IMG/VR virus record: IMGVR_UViG_3300002307_000027
Coordinates: 51,970 to 115,969 of that record
Length of the DNA: 64,000 bases
Source: a virus
Direction: 5' to 3' (one strand)
In this document: positions 16,325 through 52,286 of the stretch, in pieces
How the letters are laid out: every line of letters starts with the position of its first letter
Position numbering within the stretch: position 1 is the first letter of the stretch
Translations under genes and position numbers: made by a program
Notes under the pieces: generated by a model
Database searches by the model: none
What the model saw: only the letters and a program-made list of their open reading frames with translations
What the model was told of the DNA's origin: nothing

Positions 16325-16501
16325 ATGGACAGCCCAGCAAAGCAAGCTATTTTGGAACTGTTGCAGCAAGCGTTTGAGCAGATCAAAACTGTTACTATTG
16401 ATGGACTGACTGCTGAGGACGCGGATGCTGCTGCGGCTTTTGGTGAGATGACTAGCTCAATTGAGCACGCTATGGAAGTCGTTGGTTACTACGCGGACTA
16501 A
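16325..16501 (+). CDS. Hypothetical acidic protein
   Basis: Promoter 16262 plus GGAG. Confidence 0.8.
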   Translation: MDSPAKQAILELLQQAFEQIKTVTIDGLTAEDADAAAAFGEMTSSIEHAMEVVGYYAD

Positions 16502-16511
16502 GGAGCACACT

Positions 16512-16937
16512 ATGCTTAACATTACAAAAGTGACTGATGGCTTTACTGTTACGTTGACTGTTCCGGAAGGTGAACAGTTTATGGAATGTGCTATCGAAAG
16601 CATTGGTATGTTTGTTGCGGCTACAGAGGCGGATTGCCACGGTGATTTGGCTGTAACGTGGAGCACAACAGGACTTGAAAACACGGGTGGCAGTGATATG
16701 GGCTCGCTGCTTATGCGTAATTGGGACGATGCTGTTGGTGCTGTTATGGGTGAGTTTTATTGGAATCAAGGATATAGTGAGCGTTTGCAAGAGCTGCTAA
16801 TGGCTGCGGGCGTTCCGGAGGATGTGGCACTTAGCGTTGGTACTAGTGAGTGGGGTATGCAGGATGAAGGACGGGCAAGCTATGATGCGTTTGAGTTTGC
16901 GGATTGGATCCGAGAACGGGTAGCTGCGATGGCATAA
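16512..16937 (+). CDS. Hypothetical protein (SEWGMQ motif)
   Basis: AAGGAG RBS. Confidence 0.8.
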   Translation: MLNITKVTDGFTVTLTVPEGEQFMECAIESIGMFVAATEADCHGDLAVTWSTTGLENTGGSDMGSLLMRNWDDAVGAVMGEFYWNQGYSERLQELLMAAGVPEDVALSVGTSEWGMQDEGRASYDAFEFADWIRERVAAMA

Positions 16938-17248: not shown

Positions 17249-17473
17249 ATGTCAAACGCTGTTAAGATCGTCCGCGCTTTTGCTAATATCAATGGTGCAA
17301 AAACTGTGTTCAATGATCGGTTGGTCGATGGTACACGTAGCGTTAAAGTTTGGGGTTGGAAGCGTGAGGACTATTATGCAGCAATGGCTTTGCTGCACTC
17401 AGCGGGACTGGGTGGACGGGTCATCCGCGTTAACAACGGTTATAGCCGCGACCAGTACCGGTTGTGGGTCTAA
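17249..17473 (+). CDS. Hypothetical protein
   Basis: Promoter 17190 plus GAGG. Confidence 0.8.
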   Translation: MSNAVKIVRAFANINGAKTVFNDRLVDGTRSVKVWGWKREDYYAAMALLHSAGLGGRVIRVNNGYSRDQYRLWV

Positions 17474-17891: not shown

Positions 17892-18158
17892 AATTATAGT
17901 GTAGCACGCCTGTGCGCTGCGTCTACCTTTTGCCCCAAAAAAGAAGCCCAAAGAAAGTCCAAAAAAGATTGCTGAAACGCTAGACGTGCGCTCTAGAGGT
18001 GCTATTATACATTATAACGAGAGCACAGAGCACTAGCACAAAAACACTAAAAGCGCACAAAAAACACTAGCAAAAAAAAGCGCAAAAAAAGTTGACGTGT
18101 AGTGCAGAGGTGTTATTGTTATTATGTAGGCAACGAAACGCAAACAGGAGCTTTGCAC

Positions 18159-18404
18159 ATGGCTAAGAACTTCACTGTAGTTGGTACTTCCGTCCTCAAC
18201 GGCGCTCTCAAGATGCGCTTTGCAACGGATTTGGTAACCCGCATTAAGGTGCTGGGGCGTAACGGACACGACGCGATTAAGCTGGTTGAGTGCCCTGCGA
18301 TGGGCAAGGTTGATGCGGCTAAGTGGGTTGCGACGCAGGCGGGCTTTGAGGACGAGGCTACGCAGGCGGTGATTGCGGACTACATTAAGCGCAACGAGGC
18401 GTGA
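18159..18404 (+). CDS. Early protein, paralogue of 21580-21828
   Basis: Promoter 18092 plus AGGAG; KMRFAxDLVTRxKVL is shared with the paralogue. Confidence 0.85.
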   Translation: MAKNFTVVGTSVLNGALKMRFATDLVTRIKVLGRNGHDAIKLVECPAMGKVDAAKWVATQAGFEDEATQAVIADYIKRNEA

Positions 18405-18476
18405 GGAATTAAACAGGGCAGCGGTTGACGTGCTGCTGCCCTGTGCTACTATAAGGTATAAGGTAAGGAGCAGGCT

Positions 18477-18632
18477 ATGGTTTACATCGTAACAATCACA
18501 CTCGCAGACGGTCGCAGCCTCATCCAGGGCGTATACGGTAGCAAGGCCCGAGCTGATAAGGAAGCCTCCCGCATACAGGCGACGCTGCAGGACATGCTGG
18601 TCTCGGTTACAGAGACGCAGATCATAGACTAG
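18477..18632 (+). CDS. Hypothetical protein (51 aa)
   Basis: Promoter 18425 plus AAGGAG. Confidence 0.75.
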   Translation: MVYIVTITLADGRSLIQGVYGSKARADKEASRIQATLQDMLVSVTETQIID

Positions 18633-18810
18633 GAATTCGGTGTGGTTACTGGTGACTCCTTGTGGAACCTTCAGAGATTGTGGCAGAATGGCACTGCCGG
18701 TGCAGCACCTACGGAGATGGTAGGAAAGCAGATGAGCAATCATCCAACAGAACAAATGCCAGATATTGGAAGAGTGGTAGGAGTTTAACTCCTACCACGA
18801 CGGCCAATTC
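18633..18810 (+). ncRNA. Candidate ~180-nt multi-stem RNA
   Basis: At least four hairpins, one with a GCAA tetraloop; ends pair as GAATT/AATTC; no RBS-led ORF. Confidence 0.5.
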
Positions 18811-18881
18811 TCTAATGGAGTTAGTTGACAAGCCAACTAGATGTGCTATTATATAAACATAAGCAAACACAGGAGCGCAAG

Positions 18882-19064
18882 ATGCAGGTACAGGGAACAT
18901 TCTGCTTTATCGTTGGGCTGCTGCTCGCGATCGTGGGCGTGGCGGGTGTAGAGCAGAGCCTCACAGACGCGAGTCTGATCACAGGGTTCGTAGTCAGCTT
19001 GGTAGGCTGCGGCGTGCTGGGGTGCGGGGTGCTGATGCTGAATACAGAGACCACCTACGGTTGA
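18882..19064 (+). CDS. Small membrane protein
   Basis: Promoter 18825 plus AGGAG; stop inside the -35 box at 19061. Confidence 0.75.
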   Translation: MQVQGTFCFIVGLLLAIVGVAGVEQSLTDASLITGFVVSLVGCGVLGCGVLMLNTETTYG

Positions 19065-19115
19065 CAGCAGATACAGGCATGCTATTATACGAGTATAGGC
19101 AACGAGGAGCAGAAC

Positions 19116-19298
19116 ATGGGCATCGTAACGAACGCTAAGAAGCTGAACGCTAACATTGCCGCGATGATCGAGGACTACATTGCCGCGAAGGGTGTTACAC
19201 GGGCAGAAGACGTCGCGACTGCTAAAGGCACGAAGCTTCCTAAGACGAAACATGCGGGCAAGGCTTCTTACGGTATGAAGAATAGACGATATGCCTAG
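19116..19298 (+). CDS. Hypothetical basic protein
   Basis: Promoter 19061 plus GAGGAG. Confidence 0.8.
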   Translation: MGIVTNAKKLNANIAAMIEDYIAAKGVTRAEDVATAKGTKLPKTKHAGKASYGMKNRRYA

Positions 19299-19355
19299 GT
19301 TGACGTGCTAAGAGCAGATGCTATTATATACAAGTAGGCAATGAGGAGCAAGACA

Positions 19356-19517
19356 ATGACTGTAGCAGAGCTGATAGCGATACTGTCTCGTTTAGATCCT
19401 GAGCTGCCCGTAGAGATAGCGATGCGGATGGAGTATCAAGAGCCTGTGACTGAGCGTATGGTCACTGTCGAGGAGTATGACGGTAGGCGCTATGTCTGCA
19501 TCAACGACTGCCCTTGA
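19356..19517 (+). CDS. Hypothetical protein (MTVAELIxxL family)
   Basis: Promoter 19300 plus GAGGAG. Confidence 0.8.
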   Translation: MTVAELIAILSRLDPELPVEIAMRMEYQEPVTERMVTVEEYDGRRYVCINDCP

Positions 19518-19577
19518 CAGGTTGACGTGCTATGTAGCGATGCTATTATATACAAGTAGGCAATGAGGAGCACAAAG

Positions 19578-19778
19578 ATGTATAACGCGATGACAGACAC
19601 TGCGATCCGCAAGGCTCTTAAGATGCTCCGTGCAAACCGTGATGCAGCGTCTGCTACACGAGAAGACCGCTTCGAAGCGCAAGAGATGATCAACGGTATG
19701 ATCGATGAGCTGATCCGCAGGAACAACGATCCCTACACTACGGCAGCAGACATCCGCGCTTTTGAAGAGATGGAGTAA
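19578..19778 (+). CDS. Hypothetical protein
   Basis: Promoter 19522 plus GAGGAG. Confidence 0.8.
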   Translation: MYNAMTDTAIRKALKMLRANRDAASATREDRFEAQEMINGMIDELIRRNNDPYTTAADIRAFEEME

Positions 19779-19845
19779 GAGATGACCTTTGAACCCGAAG
19801 CAGTAGCAGAGTTCCTAGCACGTCTCGCAAAGAAAGGTATCGCAA

Positions 19846-20061
19846 ATGAAGGACTTGGGAACGGTAGTGACGGCAGCGATCGGGCTGTTGGTGATAGCGG
19901 TAGGTTTGAGCTTCTTGCTCAGCTGGCCTGTGATGCAGCTGTGGAACGGTTGCCTAGTCCCAGCGGTACACGGTGTGAATGAGATCGGTTGGCTGCAGGC
20001 TTGGGGCATCAGCTGCCTCTGCTCTATCTTGTTCAAGAGCACTATTTCTAACAGCAAGTGA
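19846..20061 (+). CDS. Small membrane protein (LWN...EIGWLQAWGI)
   Basis: Hydrophobic; common phage membrane-protein motif. Confidence 0.75.
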   Translation: MKDLGTVVTAAIGLLVIAVGLSFLLSWPVMQLWNGCLVPAVHGVNEIGWLQAWGISCLCSILFKSTISNSK

Positions 20062-20113
20062 TTGACAGGTAAATATCTTGTGCTATTATGAAGCATAAGA
20101 TGAGGAGCAGACG

Positions 20114-20416
20114 ATGAAGCGGATACTGACAGCGACACTGGCACTGAGTTTGATGAGTACAGCGGCCCTAGCTGATGGCTACTATCACAGGCAGGGTGGG
20201 GGCTACGGTGGCGGGCACTCGAGGGGCGGTGGCGGTAATTGGGTCGCTCCCCTAGTAGGTGGTCTGATCATAGGTGGTATGCTAGGCACGATGAACAACA
20301 GATACTACCAACCCTACCCTGCTTACCACACAGAGTGCGAGATGGTGCCCGTGTTTGATAGGTACAATCGCTATCTAGGCAGCGACGAACGCTGCTATGC
20401 AGTCCAAAACTATTGA
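20114..20416 (+). CDS. Secreted Gly-rich protein (alphaproteobacterial BA14K-like architecture)
   Basis: Signal peptide, Gly-rich linker, hydrophobic GGLIIGG segment, C-terminal Cys pair. Confidence 0.7.
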   Translation: MKRILTATLALSLMSTAALADGYYHRQGGGYGGGHSRGGGGNWVAPLVGGLIIGGMLGTMNNRYYQPYPAYHTECEMVPVFDRYNRYLGSDERCYAVQNY

Positions 20417-20637
20417 GGTGGGACTTGGACAAGAGCCTAGGTTGGTTAGGTTGTGCGCTGGTCTGCGCTGGTGCGGTCTGTACCAGCTTCCAGATCGATC
20501 CCCTCAATATCCTGTTCCTGAATGCAGGTGCTCTAGTCTACTTGGTATGGAGCATCAGGACTAAGACGTGGAACCAGGTAGTAGTCAACACGGTGCTCAT
20601 AGCGATCTATGCGGCCGGTGCTTTTATAAGGATGTGA
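20413..20637 (+). CDS. Membrane protein
   Basis: Three hydrophobic segments. Confidence 0.65.
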   Translation: MRWDLDKSLGWLGCALVCAGAVCTSFQIDPLNILFLNAGALVYLVWSIRTKTWNQVVVNTVLIAIYAAGAFIRM

Positions 20638-20773
20638 AGATGAAGCGATTCAAGTTCGTTATGGATGACGGTTGTAACATTGATATCATTGCGACAGACT
20701 TCCGATCAGCCTGCTTGGTGTTTGATCAGCTAGGAGAAGACCCTAGACAGATCACAGCGATCGAGGAGAGGTG

Positions 20774-21046
20774 ATGGGACTCATCGGTCTCCTAGTAGCC
20801 TTCTTCGCGTTCGCATTCCTAGCTGAATACTTCCCAGGCATATTCAAGCTGATAGTAATCATGTTCTGCACCTGCCTCGTGGTGCTCATAGTCAACCCAG
20901 CAGCAGGAGCAGGCCTAACACTGATCTGCTTAGCCGTCCTAGCTTCAATCCTGTTCCTAGCAGCCCTGCCCTTCATACTCAGCTATCTAGCAGGGCTAGC
21001 GTTCATCATCCTGCTTTGCATTGGGCTTGGGGAACTGGTCAAATAA
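20774..21046 (+). CDS. Membrane protein
   Basis: GAGGAG RBS; highly hydrophobic. Confidence 0.7.
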   Translation: MGLIGLLVAFFAFAFLAEYFPGIFKLIVIMFCTCLVVLIVNPAAGAGLTLICLAVLASILFLAALPFILSYLAGLAFIILLCIGLGELVK

Positions 21047-21072
21047 AAAAAAAGCAGCACCTAAGTGCTGCT
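21045..21072 (-). terminator. Rho-independent terminator between convergent early units
   Basis: AGCAGCAC-ctaa-GTGCTGCT with an A9 run on + (U tract on -). Confidence 0.85.
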
Positions 21073-21080
21073 CTATAGTG

Positions 21081-21209
21081 TTATGCAATGCTTTCTACGT
21101 CTTCTATAATAGCTGCTATGTTATCTATACAAACACCTATCTCAAACGTACCGTCTAGTGCTTCTAGTGCTGCTAGTGCAGCAGCCAAGTGTGCTAGTAT
21201 CTGTTCCAT
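21081..21209 (-). CDS. Small acidic protein (42 aa)
   Basis: GAGGAG RBS; MEQILAHLAAALAALEALDG... Confidence 0.7.
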   Translation of the reverse strand: MEQILAHLAAALAALEALDGTFEIGVCIDNIAAIIEDVESIA

Positions 21210-21226
21210 AGTACAGCTCCTCTATA

Positions 21227-21478
21227 TTAAGCAAAGCTCTTAACAGCCCGCTTGTTAATGTAACCCACAGCGTTCTCATAGTCATAAAAGCCAACGGGCT
21301 TGTGTCCCATATAGTATACGCAAACACCCGCTAAGTCATCGCACAGTACACCCTTAGGCATCATGTCTGTAAATCGATCCCACAACACGTTCTCCATAGC
21401 ATCGTGGTTTGCTTCTGTAAGCTCGTTGCTGTAGTCCACGTTCTTTTTACGTGAATTAACCCATGTGCATATGTTCAT
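21227..21478 (-). CDS. Hypothetical protein
   Basis: GGAG RBS at 21486-21489. Confidence 0.75.
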   Translation of the reverse strand: MNICTWVNSRKKNVDYSNELTEANHDAMENVLWDRFTDMMPKGVLCDDLAGVCVYYMGHKPVGFYDYENAVGYINKRAVKSFA

Positions 21479-21579
21479 TAGTATGCTCCACTGCTAGTGT
21501 TACTAAAAAGCACAATATAAACACTGCGCTTTTAAGTAACACTAGCGCAACAGTGTGCTGCGCTAGTGTATAGTGTGCG

Positions 21580-21828
21580 TTAAATAGTGTTTTTAGCAAT
21601 AAAAGCTTTAATAACAGCTTGCGCTTGCTCATCTGCAAATTCTGCTTGCGTTAACGCAAACTGTGCAGCAGCAAGCTTGTGCATAGCAGCACATTCCATA
21701 AGCTTTACATTAGTGTGCTTGTTACGTGCAAGCACTTTGTAACGTGTAACTAAATCATTTGCAAAGCGCATTTTAACAACGCTGTTAAGTGTGCTAATGC
21801 CAACTACAGTGTAAGTGTTGTTATGCAT
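21580..21828 (-). CDS. Early protein, YC/GR-purged paralogue of 18159-18404
   Basis: GGAG RBS; promoter at 21911-21916; colinear similarity to the paralogue. Confidence 0.85.
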   Translation of the reverse strand: MHNNTYTVVGISTLNSVVKMRFANDLVTRYKVLARNKHTNVKLMECAAMHKLAAAQFALTQAEFADEQAQAVIKAFIAKNTI

Positions 21829-21888
21829 AGTGTTGCTCCGTTTGTTACGCTGCGTTAGTGCAGCTTGCGTTGCGTTGCTTACTTGTAT

Positions 21889-22076
21889 ATAATAGCACAA
21901 GCTGCATGCTTGTCAACAAGCTTACAGCAGTTTTTTGCAGCAAGTGTGCTGTGCTGTAGCGCATAGCGCAGCGCATAGCTATTGCAGCTTGCGCAGTGTG
22001 CGCTTGCAGTGTGCTGTGCGTTATGTGCTTTGCTTAACAACATAACTAACAATAACACGTTATAGCATATTGTCAA
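21889..22076 (-). promoter_or_regulatory. Two tandem minus-strand early promoters (-35 boxes at 21911-21916 and 22071-22076)
   Basis: TTGACA-N16-TATTAT and TTGACA-N16-TATTGT. Confidence 0.85.
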
Positions 22077-22080
22077 TAAC

Positions 22081-22410
22081 ACGTAAAAAAATGTGAATTA
22101 AAAACGCTAACGATTACAAGCACTTAGGGGAGCATGCAAATTATTTTAAAAATAAATTCGTCAATGATATCAAGGGGATAGGCCAGGGGTGGCATGTCTT
22201 TGTTATTGCTAGCTTTTTTGTAGCTAGCGTAGCGTTTTTTCGCCACCCCATAGACTAGAAATCACCTGGTGGAAAGTAAAGTTTACTTATATTAAAAAAA
22301 CTGCGCAACAAGTTTTTGACTTTGCTCTACTAGGTCTCCCCCCGAAAACCCTGTAGCACCTTGGAACCACAGATCAAAAATTTTTGCGCGGCAATTTTTT
22401 TCTTGTGCTA
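22081..22410. other. Non-coding junction: candidate genome terminus, packaging signal or origin
   Basis: A-tracts, two IHF-like repeats and a GGGGTGGC/GCCACCCC inverted repeat at the boundary between early and core regions. Confidence 0.45.
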
Positions 22411-26238: not shown

Positions 26239-27696
26239 TTATTTTTCGTATGTGTGTACGTTAACACCGTAGTGCAGACTAAATCCCTTGGCACCAAACT
26301 GATCGTTAACAATAGGTTGTCCTTTGATATTGAGGCTAGTGTTTAACAGTACGGGACAACCTGTAAGTTCATACCATTCTTCTAGCAGTATGCGTAGCCC
26401 GTGATTGCTCATTGGCATAGTCTGAACCCTGCAGGTCCCGTCGATATGCATCGCAGCAGGGATAGCTTCTGGCTTCAAACACTTGGCTGCATACTGCATA
26501 TATCTAGAATTAACATTTAGATCAAAGTATTCGTCAGCAAACTCTTCTAGTATAACAGGAGCAAATGGTCGGAATGCTTGCCTCTGTTTGATAGCGTTGA
26601 CTTTGTCTTTCATATCTAGTGTTCGTGGATCTGCTAGTAGACTGCGATTTCCAAGTGCCCTAGGACCAAACTCTGCACGACCATTTGCGACACCAACTAT
26701 CCCCCCGTCTACTAGATCTGCTAGGCTTTTCTTTATCGGATAGTTTCCTCCGATAGGATATCCCCAGAAGCAGTCGTTCCACTTTATACGCTTCTTACGA
26801 TGTGCTAGTGCTGCACCCACTGCTGATCCGCTGTCTCCAGGATTAGGAAATATCCAAACATTCTTAAATTGCTTTAATGCTAGCGTATTAGCTACACAGT
26901 TTAGCACACATCCGCCTGCTAGAGCTAGGTTAGTATTGCTAGCATAGTGTCTAGCTATCATTAGTAGCTTTTTAAATTCTGTTTCATATATCCATTGTGT
27001 GGCGGCTGCTATATCAAATAGATCCTGTGCGGCAGTTAGTTCGGGCGCCCAGTTACGACAGCCTTTATGTAGATTTTTGTGTACTCCATTCTTATCGAAT
27101 AGGTCATTGTACATACGCTCACGTAGCCTATCTGGATCACCGTATGCTGCCATACCCATGAGTATGTATTCATCTTCTTGTGGCTTTAGTCCGATGCGCT
27201 GTGTCATAGCACTATAGAATAATCCAAGACTATTTGGATAGTTCCTAGTCCATACTTTCTTTAATCCTAATTCTTTGGCTTTCCATATGCTAACTGTATT
27301 CCATTCTCCGATACTGTCAACTACTAATATAGTGCCTTCATCAAACGGTGCAGTATAATAAGCAGCAGCAGCGTGTGATAGATGATGGTCAGTATAATTG
27401 ATCCTGCAAGTGATATCTCGATCACTTAGATACTTCTTGATATCGTTATCACGATACTTCCATCCTTGTCCTGCCCATAACTGCCTTAGTGTCTTGCTAA
27501 ATGGTCTCTCATACCAATAGACTTCTTTTGGATCACCGTATTTTTGTTTGAGATATTGTACCATTAATGATGGTATATGGGCATCGTTTTTTATCCCACT
27601 GAACCGTTCTGTCTGGCTAGCAAACAACAGACAGTCGTTATCAAATACTGCTATAGCAGCGTCGTGGCTATTAGCCGATATACCCCAGGTAATCAT
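26239..27696 (-). CDS. Carbamoyltransferase (NodU/CmcH/TobZ family)
   Basis: HDAAIA, ERFSGIKND, HHLSHAA, EFGPRALGNRS, RPFAP, LLNTSLN. Confidence 0.95.
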   Translation of the reverse strand: MITWGISANSHDAAIAVFDNDCLLFASQTERFSGIKNDAHIPSLMVQYLKQKYGDPKEVYWYERPFSKTLRQLWAGQGWKYRDNDIKKYLSDRDITCRINYTDHHLSHAAAAYYTAPFDEGTILVVDSIGEWNTVSIWKAKELGLKKVWTRNYPNSLGLFYSAMTQRIGLKPQEDEYILMGMAAYGDPDRLRERMYNDLFDKNGVHKNLHKGCRNWAPELTAAQDLFDIAAATQWIYETEFKKLLMIARHYASNTNLALAGGCVLNCVANTLALKQFKNVWIFPNPGDSGSAVGAALAHRKKRIKWNDCFWGYPIGGNYPIKKSLADLVDGGIVGVANGRAEFGPRALGNRSLLADPRTLDMKDKVNAIKQRQAFRPFAPVILEEFADEYFDLNVNSRYMQYAAKCLKPEAIPAAMHIDGTCRVQTMPMSNHGLRILLEEWYELTGCPVLLNTSLNIKGQPIVNDQFGAKGFSLHYGVNVHTYEK

Positions 27697-51662: not shown

Positions 51663-52286
51663 TTAACCAGCACCAGTTGAGATAGCACCAACAGTACGTC
51701 CAACATTAACACCAATACCACTTCCCTGTGGAACCTGTATAGCATTATCGTAACGTATGCTTAGTCCAATCTGTATAGCGTCGTTTGCACTGTAAGCAAG
51801 CTGTCCATAGTTAGCTGAAACTAGGAAGCAACCATATAGTTCCCAAGTTTCTAATACATTTGGTGTATAAGCGCCGTTACCGCCATCGAGTATTTCGATA
51901 CGTGTTAGGAACTTGTAATCAACACCACTTGCTGCCGATGACTGCTCATAGAAATCAAACTGCTTCTGCATCTGCTCTGCAACAAGCTTCTGTACAATGC
52001 CTGTAGCATCTTCACGTATGTTGACGCTAACTGGTTGCCAAGCGTGTCTACCAGCAAGATAAACTTGTGAATTGTATGAATTCATAGTTATTTCTTGAAA
52101 GCTTACATTTGGTTTTGTGCAATCAACTATCTGCCTTGATAGTTCGGTAGTTGGGTTAGTTACCCCGAAACCGTCAAAGGTAACCCTAAAGCGATAACTC
52201 AGCTTAGGCATCAACAGAGTCTGGTTGCTAGAGCTCTGGTCCGATGCTAGCGGAACGCTTAATTTTGTTAGTGTTGAAATCGCCAT
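51663..52286 (-). CDS. Tail tube protein (gp19-like)
   Basis: Follows the sheath; YLAGRHAW...WELYGCF...IRYDNA. Confidence 0.9.
   Translation of the reverse strand: MAISTLTKLSVPLASDQSSSNQTLLMPKLSYRFRVTFDGFGVTNPTTELSRQIVDCTKPNVSFQEITMNSYNSQVYLAGRHAWQPVSVNIREDATGIVQKLVAEQMQKQFDFYEQSSAASGVDYKFLTRIEILDGGNGAYTPNVLETWELYGCFLVSANYGQLAYSANDAIQIGLSIRYDNAIQVPQGSGIGVNVGRTVGAISTGAG

Follow-up and report, generated by a model that had tools for sequence, protein, structure and literature searches.

We analyzed a 64,000-nucleotide window of DNA (positions 51,970–115,969 of the IMG/VR record IMGVR_UViG_3300002307_000027, a contig of 116 kb from an uncultured giant phage), which carries two copies of a small gene. 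Copy A (18159–18404, plus strand) encodes 81 amino acids and copy B (21580–21828, minus strand) encodes 82. The proteins are 59% identical over 75 residues (BLASTP, 44/75 identities, E 8e-32). The inverted, colinear pair described in the earlier note is hence real, as is the dinucleotide rule that it had linked to copy B.

Tandem promoters precede both copies, as the earlier note had stated, and were confirmed by an independent scan. For copy A these are TAGACG-16-TATTAT at 17981–18008 and TTGACG-16-TATTGT at 18092–18119 (both plus strand), separated by an A/C-rich leader. For copy B they are TTGACA-16-TATTGT at 22049–22076 and TTGACA-16-TATTAT at 21889–21916 (both minus strand), with spacers that contain none of the dinucleotides TC, CC, GA and GG. 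All four promoters have a TG extended −10 element, and those of copy B are of the same class as about 30 other early promoters.

Copy B is the first gene of a 1058-nt leftward early unit, driven by its two consensus sigma70-type promoters, with two further genes of unknown function, at 21227–21478 (83 amino acids) and 21081–21209 (42 amino acids), both on the minus strand. The 83-residue protein gave no Pfam or PHROG match, but has a homologue at the same position (1747–1974) in L010, an unpurged family locus on another phage contig. An intrinsic terminator with a 10-bp stem followed by a T run closes the unit (21051–21074, minus strand). Two hairpins follow gene B (21490–21575, minus strand), the second with a TTTTT tail, and are conserved in a related locus, L018. 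From the sequence alone, they may form an attenuator separating gene B from the downstream genes.

Dinucleotide purge of the copy B unit

The plus strand has no GG or GA between 21453 and 22095, i.e., the sense strand of the unit lacks TC and CC (YC) for 642 nt. This is the longest such run in the contig; the next-longest are 259 nt (21037–21296, in the same unit) and 146 nt. About six YC remain in the whole unit, and the YC-free zone ends at the terminator. The purge has two tiers. In the first (21488–22095), about 600 bp comprising promoters, leaders, gene B and intergenic hairpins are almost free of all four dinucleotides on both strands. Observed/expected ratios were 0.00 for CC, 0.00 for TC, 0.21 for GA and 0.16 for GG, but 2.84 for GC. 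The surviving sites are the −35 boxes, the GGAG ribosome-binding site and Gly, Asp and Glu codons. In the second tier (21037–21487, minus strand), the two downstream genes are purged of TC and CC on the sense strand only. The gene at 21227–21478 has 6 YC (expected 11.3) and 36 GA or GG (GR; expected 32.9), and that at 21081–21209 has 0 YC (expected 7.0) and 14 GR (expected 14.8).

We next asked whether the proteins themselves account for this pattern. Gene B contains 0 YC (expected 11) and 7 GR (expected 16), in both cases exactly the minimum that its protein allows. The codons of copy A in contrast show no YC avoidance (observed 12, expected 12.1). However, a 180-nt stretch covering the leader and ribosome-binding site of copy A (17992–18172, plus strand) has no TC or CC on the sense strand while GA and GG are still present, and is the longest CC/TC-free run on the plus strand of the contig.

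Of 81 aligned positions, 35 differ between the two proteins. Eleven of these hold Gly, Pro, Trp, Asp or Glu in copy A and another residue in copy B: G15S, G33A, G36K, D38T, P46A, G49H, D52A, W56F, E64A, D74A and E80T. None goes the other way, and one further difference is Gly to Glu (sign test p=0.001). Nine of the 11 need at least one transversion, and Ser11 switched from TCC to AGC. The fraction of Gly, Pro, Trp, Asp and Glu is 0.21 in copy A, equal to the family median, but 0.075 in copy B; purged copies range from 0.01 to 0.075, the lowest of 173 domains.

The earlier note had read all such differences as losses from copy B, and this polarity holds only for about half of them. Compared with 166 unpurged family members, only positions 15, 36, 46, 52 and 74 normally hold Gly, Pro, Asp or Glu, and here copy B departed from the norm. 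The family-invariant Gly15 is replaced by three different residues in the purged copies. At positions 33, 38, 49, 56, 64 and 80, copy A holds a minority residue and copy B the common or a neutral one; Trp in particular was not given up by copy B. That homologues elsewhere might carry the same substitutions regardless of context had been named beforehand as a refuting condition, and it was partly fulfilled. The unpurged homologues L010 and L011 share 6 of the 11 substitutions (G33A, D38S, G49F, W56F, E64T and D74A). G33, D38, G49, W56 and E64, like E80, are minority residues of copy A, whereas position 74 normally holds Asp or Glu. About half of the listed differences hence do not depend on context.

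As the earlier note had proposed, selection and not C-to-T decay maintains the rule. 164 substitutions separate the unit from L018, yet YC stays at 1 in both and GR at 13 in both, whereas the same number of random substitutions gives 40 ± 6 and 45 ± 6.5, respectively. Among three phages, the rule survived 164–232 substitutions, and tier 1 is conserved in L010/L006 and L018/L007. Cytosine content is normal (0.22 against 0.21 elsewhere). Moreover, L006 is purged (YC 2, GR 10) but its sister copy L010, 1.7 kb away on the same contig, is not (YC 24, GR 23). Purged copies of this family also occur in two other freshwater phage contigs and in marine contigs.

Candidate readers of the purged dinucleotides

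We regard the following as shown by the analysis. The two genes are old paralogues, and the copy B unit is under strong, continuing selection at the nucleotide level, such that its template strand avoids GA and GG throughout and both strands avoid all four dinucleotides over the first 600 bp. Gene B has been recoded to the theoretical minimum and has lost otherwise conserved Gly, Pro and Asp/Glu residues. As the coding region of copy A is unconstrained, the pair acts as an internal control, i.e., the constraint belongs to the place in the genome and not to the protein. What reads these dinucleotides is in contrast inferred, as are DNA modification, any effect on transcription or Rho, and the expression and function of protein B. 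The interpretation given in the earlier note is thus only partly supported: nucleotide-level selection on copy B holds, whereas its proposals that copy B makes the earliest protein and may lift the constraint, for example as an RNA polymerase modifier or anti-defence factor, remain inferences from sequence.

As the best candidate we tentatively propose the phage's own guanine hypermodification, directed at GA and GG as inferred for its nearest cultured relative, PA5oct (50% identity in DnaB). In this view, the template strand of the unit carries no modifiable guanine, and near the promoters neither strand does. The unmodified host RNA polymerase could then transcribe it at once from freshly injected, decorated DNA, and the amino-acid changes in protein B would be the price. 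The avoided set is a single duplex step class, GA plus GG, which is symmetric in tier 1 and includes untranscribed promoter spacer and upstream DNA. For PA5oct, a modified G in GA and/or GG was inferred and QueE- and PTPS-like genes were reported (PMC12191111); we confirmed two PTPS genes. DpdA of phage CAjan modifies GA and GGC (PMC7544227). PA5oct itself has stretches of 141–217 nt free of all four dinucleotides, one of which lies on tandem promoters ahead of tRNA-Met/Leu in its early region, with the same TAACAAACGGAG ribosome-binding site context.

Several results speak against this reading. We found no TGT/DpdA, QueC or PTPS gene on the 116-kb contig. TGT (PF01702) was also absent from five related fragments and PTPS from three of them, with PA5oct as positive control for PTPS; of the preQ0 pathway genes (QueC, QueD/PTPS, QueE, FolE), QueC was searched on this contig only. 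These contigs are, however, only 8–32% complete, and phage DpdAs may escape the Pfam model, which gave no TGT match in PA5oct either. Furthermore, about 30 other early promoters and their genes carry GA and GG freely on the template strand, including a conserved CC in the promoter spacer, and modification therefore cannot block host transcription in general. The −35 box TTGACA keeps its GA. We found no published evidence that 7-deazaguanines hinder bacterial RNA polymerase, and neither the two modification papers nor our literature searches describe modification-free islands or proteins recoded to create them. One reader does not by itself explain why tier 2 is purged on one strand only, with no synonymous GR avoidance at all.

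The main rival is avoidance of Rho at the RNA level, which we consider possible but doubtful. Each of the six clefts of Rho's primary binding site holds one 5′-YC dinucleotide (PMC5314796). A transcript without UC or CC, including its long untranslated leaders, could not load Rho and would be made full length before translation coupling or any phage anti-terminator is in place. The strict, unit-wide rule is exactly YC on the sense strand only, from the promoters to the intrinsic terminator. C is kept at normal frequency but only as AC or GC, and the untranslated leader of copy A is likewise YC-free while keeping GA and GG. Rho avoidance shapes sense-strand composition in Bacillus (PMC13323073), but the known cases are genome-wide statistical biases, i.e., purine richness, and not total removal of YC from one unit. 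It does not explain the GA/GG purge of tier 1, which cost Gly, Asp and Glu in protein B, nor the symmetric 1.6-kb purge in the marine relative, nor the purged spacer of the upstream promoter and the DNA before it. Moreover, translated genes are normally shielded from Rho.

Escape from a host or phage enzyme attacking single-stranded RNA or DNA at dinucleotides is unlikely. The ADP-ribosyltransferase CmdT modifies GA in single-stranded mRNA and blocks translation (PMC11618068), and GA is nearly absent from the gene B mRNA and its leaders. The strand specificity of tier 2 would fit an RNA target, or the exposed non-template strand if a YC-specific deaminase or nuclease acted there. However, the two downstream genes have GA and GG at expectation, and hence GA is not avoided throughout the unit. 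No single known enzyme covers all four dinucleotides, CmdT acts only faintly on other purine pairs and is triggered late, by capsid protein, and the GGAG ribosome-binding site is kept. Nothing in the window identifies such an enzyme.

Still less likely is a stealth leading end, in which the unit would lie at the physical end of the virion DNA, at the boundary of a terminal repeat as in PA5oct-like phages, enter the cell first and avoid short host nuclease or CRISPR PAM motifs (CC/GG, TTC) until its products act. The unit sits at the edge of the roughly 25-kb early array, at a composition and gene-orientation boundary near 22.1 kb, and points inward; without sequencing reads, a terminal position is conjecture. 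PA5oct's early genes lie in its 39-kb terminal repeat (PMC7318152). At the T7 left end, the tandem host-polymerase promoters A1–A3 are likewise strong, of sigma70 type and followed by a small first gene, 0.3 (Ocr). But AAGCTT (several copies), GCATGC, TGCGCA and GCTAGC occur inside the zone, and the zone therefore does not show general restriction-site avoidance. A local purge cannot protect the rest of the genome, in L010 the unit is internal and runs the same way as its neighbors, and the one-strand tier 2 is unexplained. A relic of C-to-T hypermutation at YC, or a by-product of odd amino-acid usage, would fit a few transitions (GGC>AGC, GGA>AAG) but is for practical purposes refuted by the cytosine content, GC enrichment, transversions, purged non-coding leaders, conservation of the rule and exact synonymous minimum.

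Selection against short words, sometimes at a cost to coding, is known in phages for restriction sites and PAMs. Here, the words are two letters long and the purge is local (1 kb), partly strand specific, and leaves many 6-bp palindromes in place. It strips conserved Gly, Pro and Asp/Glu from a protein while the predicted fold is kept, which implies a reader with dinucleotide specificity acting in the first minutes of infection. The pair provides a same-genome control and identifies one protein family as the recurrent resident of such zones. If the reader is the phage's own modification, purged zones would reveal modification motifs from sequence alone and show that hypermodified DNA has a transcriptional cost. 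If it is Rho or a defence enzyme, these units are natural designs for transcripts invisible to it.

The protein family and possible roles of protein B

Both copies belong to a large, uncharacterized family of small phage proteins without a Pfam or PHROG model. They align with 8 database proteins and 11 loci across the 80-residue domain, with invariant T6, V7, G9, S11, L13, R20, F21, A22, R28, V31, L32 and H37, and the family profile finds 1287 cluster representatives at E≤1e-3. AF2 models of copies A and B (pLDDT 94.8 and 94.3) have the same β-β-α-β-α-α order of elements, from which, without superposition of the models, we conclude that both are predicted to share one fold. Model A matches BFVD models of uncharacterized phage proteins at TM 0.83–0.89, but no informative solved-structure match was found. 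The purged proteins also show that a stable, here predicted, fold can be written with about 15 amino acids.

A more speculative and unlikely, though not excluded, possibility is that the B-lineage protein itself lifts the constraint. It would neutralize or redirect whatever reads GR/YC steps, e.g., a modification-dependent nuclease, Rho, or the host polymerase's difficulty with decorated templates, and would hence have to be made from a gene that the reader cannot see. This would explain why this one family has stayed in purged zones from lake to marine phages while a second, unconstrained copy is kept elsewhere. The recurrence of a purged member in freshwater and marine phages fits a special role for this lineage without showing it.

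Protein B is not an acidic DNA mimic of the Ocr/ArdA type, as it is basic, with 5 Asp and Glu against 12 Lys and Arg, and has no fold match. No OB-fold chain appeared among the structural matches of the model (best VIA Z 3.4), although 40 of 172 family members end in an SSB-like acidic ...EDAPF tip.

A phage early region with a pair of small paralogues

The 115,969-bp IMG/VR virus contig, of which the window forms the last 64 kb, was rated 32% complete by CheckV. It belongs to a large myovirus with a 1354-aa tail sheath, a DnaB-like helicase, a Toprim primase and a RecA/UvsX-like protein. Its nearest cultured relative by DnaB is Pseudomonas phage PA5oct, at 50% identity. A NodU/Nol-like carbamoyltransferase (26239–27696, minus strand) sits between the primase and the DnaB helicase, its nearest cultured-phage homologue is found in Ralstonia jumbo phage RsoM2USA (45% identity), and otherwise it occurs mostly in cyanophages. 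Window positions 0–21 kb hold about 30 cassettes, each made up of a near-identical sigma70-type promoter (TTGACA-N16-TATTAT with an extended -10) followed by a small gene. Between 155 and 20089 these early promoters fall into two sub-types, i.e., one with a conserved CC in the spacer (TTGACAnnCCAC...) and one without (TTGACGTGCT... or TTGACAGCAG...; at 18092, 19061, 19300 and 19522). The genes after the second type are nevertheless not purged. At 22100–22400 a divergent intergenic region marks a sharp boundary in composition (GC 0.47–0.51 to the left, 0.40–0.44 to the right) and in gene orientation, which may be the edge of a terminal repeat or of a module. An Rfam search of 15.5–23.5 kb returned only the two tRNAs.

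The two paralogues, copy A at 18159–18404 on the plus strand (81 aa) and copy B at 21580–21828 on the minus strand (82 aa), align without gaps over 75 residues with 59% identity (E 8e-32). Searches with Pfam and PHROGs gave nothing informative for both copies and their neighbours, and neither copy has a match. AlphaFold models of both are confident (pLDDT 94.8 for copy A and 94.3 for copy B) and show the same predicted order of secondary-structure elements, beta-beta-alpha-beta-alpha-alpha, as compared without superposition. No solved structure resembles model A: Foldseek against the PDB gave a best E of 0.55, and a wide VIA-align search gave a best Z of 3.4, with T7 Gp2 at Z 3.0 being at chance level, so no fold could be assigned. 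In BFVD only uncharacterised phage proteins matched, and the ESM Atlas gave no usable hit. The family is large, as a profile search found 1287 cluster representatives at E<=1e-3. Some members of about 190–230 aa contain two tandem copies of the domain (P0009, P0010, P0011, P0012, P0014, P0016 and P0028 among the proteins found in this search). In contrast, tblastn of copy A against 50,697 cultured-phage records returned no match, and the family profile found no match in PA5oct, Atu_ph07 or RsoM2USA.

Each copy is preceded by two promoter-like sites about 110 and 160 nt apart, found both with our own pattern and with an independent scan. A consensus fold of the three B leaders gave no convincing covariation with only three sequences.

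Dinucleotide usage and the composition of protein B

On the plus strand there is no GG or GA from 21453 to 22095 (642 nt), and from 21037 to 22095 there are only about six. The next-longest such run elsewhere in the 116-kb contig is 146 nt. This stretch is exactly the leftward transcription unit, i.e., promoters at 22076 and 21916, gene B, two further small genes (21227–21478 and 21081–21209) and an intrinsic terminator at 21074–21051. The sense strand of the whole unit therefore almost lacks TC and CC (YC). In the first 600 bp (21488–22095, tier 1) the sense strand also nearly lacks GA and GG (GR), the survivors being the two TTGACA boxes, the GGAG ribosome site and the Gly/Asp/Glu codons of gene B. 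Observed/expected ratios there are CC 0.00, TC 0.00, GA 0.21, GG 0.16 and GC 2.84, while cytosine frequency is normal with 0.22 against 0.21 in the early array.

To assess how far the genes obey this rule, we compared each gene with the minimum count possible for its protein and with codon-shuffled versions using the phage's own codon usage. Gene B sits at the absolute minimum for both step classes, with YC 0 (minimum 0, expected 11.0) and GR 7 (minimum 7, expected 16.0). The two downstream genes avoid YC, with 6 (minimum 3, expected 11.3) for 21227–21478 and 0 (minimum 0, expected 7.0) for 21081–21209, but they show no synonymous avoidance of GR, with 36 (minimum 24, expected 32.9) and 14 (minimum 11, expected 14.8), respectively. 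We therefore reject the idea that the strand asymmetry is merely the cheaper half of a symmetric rule, the unit-wide rule is truly strand specific. The coding region of copy A is not purged at all, with YC 12 (minimum 2, expected 12.1) and GR 42 (minimum 19, expected 31.8). However, the 180-nt promoter-and-leader stretch of copy A (17992–18172) is the longest TC/CC-free run on the plus strand of the contig. One other early gene, at 16461–16937 on the plus strand, is significantly YC-poor on its sense strand (11 observed against 23.8 expected, minimum 4) but has normal GA/GG.

Of 35 positions that differ between the two proteins, 11 are G/P/W/D/E in copy A against another residue in copy B, and none goes the other way (sign test p=0.001). 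Nine of the 11 need a transversion, and the conserved Ser11 switched from TCC to AGC. The earlier note had described an inverted paralogue pair in which one copy gave up Gly, Pro, Trp, Asp and Glu to obey the dinucleotide rule, and this observation stands, although its polarity is only half right. We aligned 172 family sequences to the family profile and compared the six purged copies with 166 unpurged ones. At position 15 the norm is Gly (155 of 166), whereas all six purged copies have N, A or S instead. G/P/W/D/E are present in 96% of unpurged members at position 36, in 86% at position 46, in 70% at position 52 and in 54% at position 74. In contrast, at positions 33, 38, 49, 56, 64 and 80 copy A carries a minority residue, and B has the common or a neutral one. 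Trp56, for example, is rare in the family, where Phe or Tyr is usual. In line with this, the unpurged relatives L010 and L011 share six of the eleven substitutions, including D74A.

At the level of the whole domain the effect is clear. Over 173 domains the G/P/W/D/E fraction has a median of 0.21 and a 5th percentile of 0.15, and copy A is at 0.21. The purged copies are the lowest of all, with 0.075 for copy B, 0.075 and 0.062 for the purged copies L006 and L007 from two other IMG/VR contigs, and 0.075 and 0.011 for the database family members P0091 and P0106. B-lineage copies that lie outside a purged zone (L010:3346–3597, L011:763–1014 and P0039) use TC/CC/GA/GG freely in their DNA, but their proteins have an intermediate G/P/W/D/E fraction (0.11 and 0.14 for L011 and L010), as if they had left a purged zone and only partly recovered.

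Conservation and distribution of the purged state

Two other IMG/VR contigs carry the same unit with the same two-tier pattern, L010 with the purged copy L006 and L018 with the purged copy L007. The window and L018 differ by 164 substitutions over 613 aligned bases, yet both have YC = 1 and GR = 13. The same number of random substitutions gives 40±6 and 45±6.5, with simulation minima of 19 and 22. On the L010 contig, the purged copy (YC 2, GR 10) and an unpurged sister copy (YC 24, GR 23; 75% identical) lie 1.7 kb apart on the same strand, and this pair shows five losses and no gains of G/P/W/D/E. The two promoter types of the B unit appear in swapped order in the window (22049–22076 and 21889–21916) compared with the two relatives (L010:1170 and 1321; L018:4730 and about 4880). 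Moreover, the whole unit is inverted and moved relative to the L010 contig, where it sits after the homologue of 17249–17473, which is where the window has its tRNAs and copy A.

Marine TARA contigs carry a family member with a single Gly and no Pro, Trp, Asp or Glu in 118 residues. It lies inside a 1.6-kb zone almost free of all four dinucleotides on both strands (L041:3180–4800, also on L042 and L043), next to a 130-aa protein with none of the five residues, and the ribosome sites of this zone are reduced to AAGG.

An independent origin of the purged state was not established. A 21-row tree needs two changes, but in a 40-row tree all six purged copies fall, together with three unpurged ones, in one weakly supported clade. 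A single ancient purged lineage is not rejected (AU test, p 0.28), and shared composition may also pull the purged copies together, we therefore do not claim independent origins. Either way, the state follows the place in the genome. Literature searches found nothing describing locally purged early units or paralogues recoded in this way.

Candidate readers of the dinucleotide step

Our analysis shows the pair, the purge and the selection that maintains it, whereas what reads the step, and any early role or function of protein B, is only inferred. Mutational decay is effectively excluded by the synonymous minimum of gene B, the conservation against L018 and the normal cytosine content.

We tentatively favor the phage's own guanine modification as the reader. 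The avoided set is one duplex step class (GA+GG and their complements), it is symmetric in tier 1, and it extends into the untranscribed spacer of the upstream promoter and 20–60 nt beyond it. PA5oct DNA resists enzymes whose sites contain GA/GG, from which its authors infer a modified G at GA and/or GG, and they report QueE- and PTPS-like genes (PMC12191111). We found two PTPS genes in PA5oct. DpdA of phage CAjan targets GA and GGC (PMC7544227). Moreover, PA5oct depends on the host polymerase and transcribes its terminal-repeat region early (PMC7318152). In its 33% GC genome (NC_071039.1) it has stretches of 141–217 nt free of TC, CC, GA and GG (264997–265138, 267340–267557, 277084–277227 and 239310–239459). 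The one at 267.3 kb holds two repeated TTGCAA-17-TATAAT promoters just before tRNA-Met/Leu, with the same TAACAAACGGAG ribosome-site context as here, and the annotated gp099 overlapping 264997–265138 may be a leader RNA rather than a gene. However, searches for TGT, QueC and PTPS genes on the contig, and for TGT and PTPS on related fragments, were negative, with only fragmentary genomes covered, and RsoM2USA, the nearest holder of the carbamoyltransferase, has no PTPS. About 30 other early units carry GA/GG on the template strand, and TTGACA keeps its GA.

Rho avoidance appears less likely. The YC specificity and the sense-strand restriction fit Rho's primary binding clefts exactly (PMC5314796), and Rho avoidance is known to shape coding-strand composition (PMC13323073). 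Yet it does not explain the GA/GG purge that cost the protein its Gly, Asp and Glu, and the primary binding function is reported to be largely dispensable in vivo (PMC5314796). A dinucleotide-specific enzyme acting on RNA or single-stranded DNA, such as CmdT on GA (PMC11618068), is an unlikely reader, and a first-entering stealth end is the least likely of the four candidates.

The interpretation in the earlier note is partly supported: selection rather than C>T mutation pressure explains the purged copy, while its proposal that B is the earliest protein and lifts the constraint remains a hypothesis, as the promoters of the B unit are of the common early class and the predicted fold is uninformative. 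The recurrence of this family in purged zones would fit a special early role. Moreover, 40 of 172 family members (among L012, L014, L015, L016 and P0013–P0087, but not the two copies of the window) carry a Lys/Ala/Pro-rich tail ending in an acidic ...EDAPF tip, which hints at a link to DNA-metabolism hubs, although neither point shows function. This tip resembles the C-terminal tip of bacterial SSB (DDDIPF). In the purged marine member, the tail contains no Pro, Asp or Glu and ends in AQFVV.
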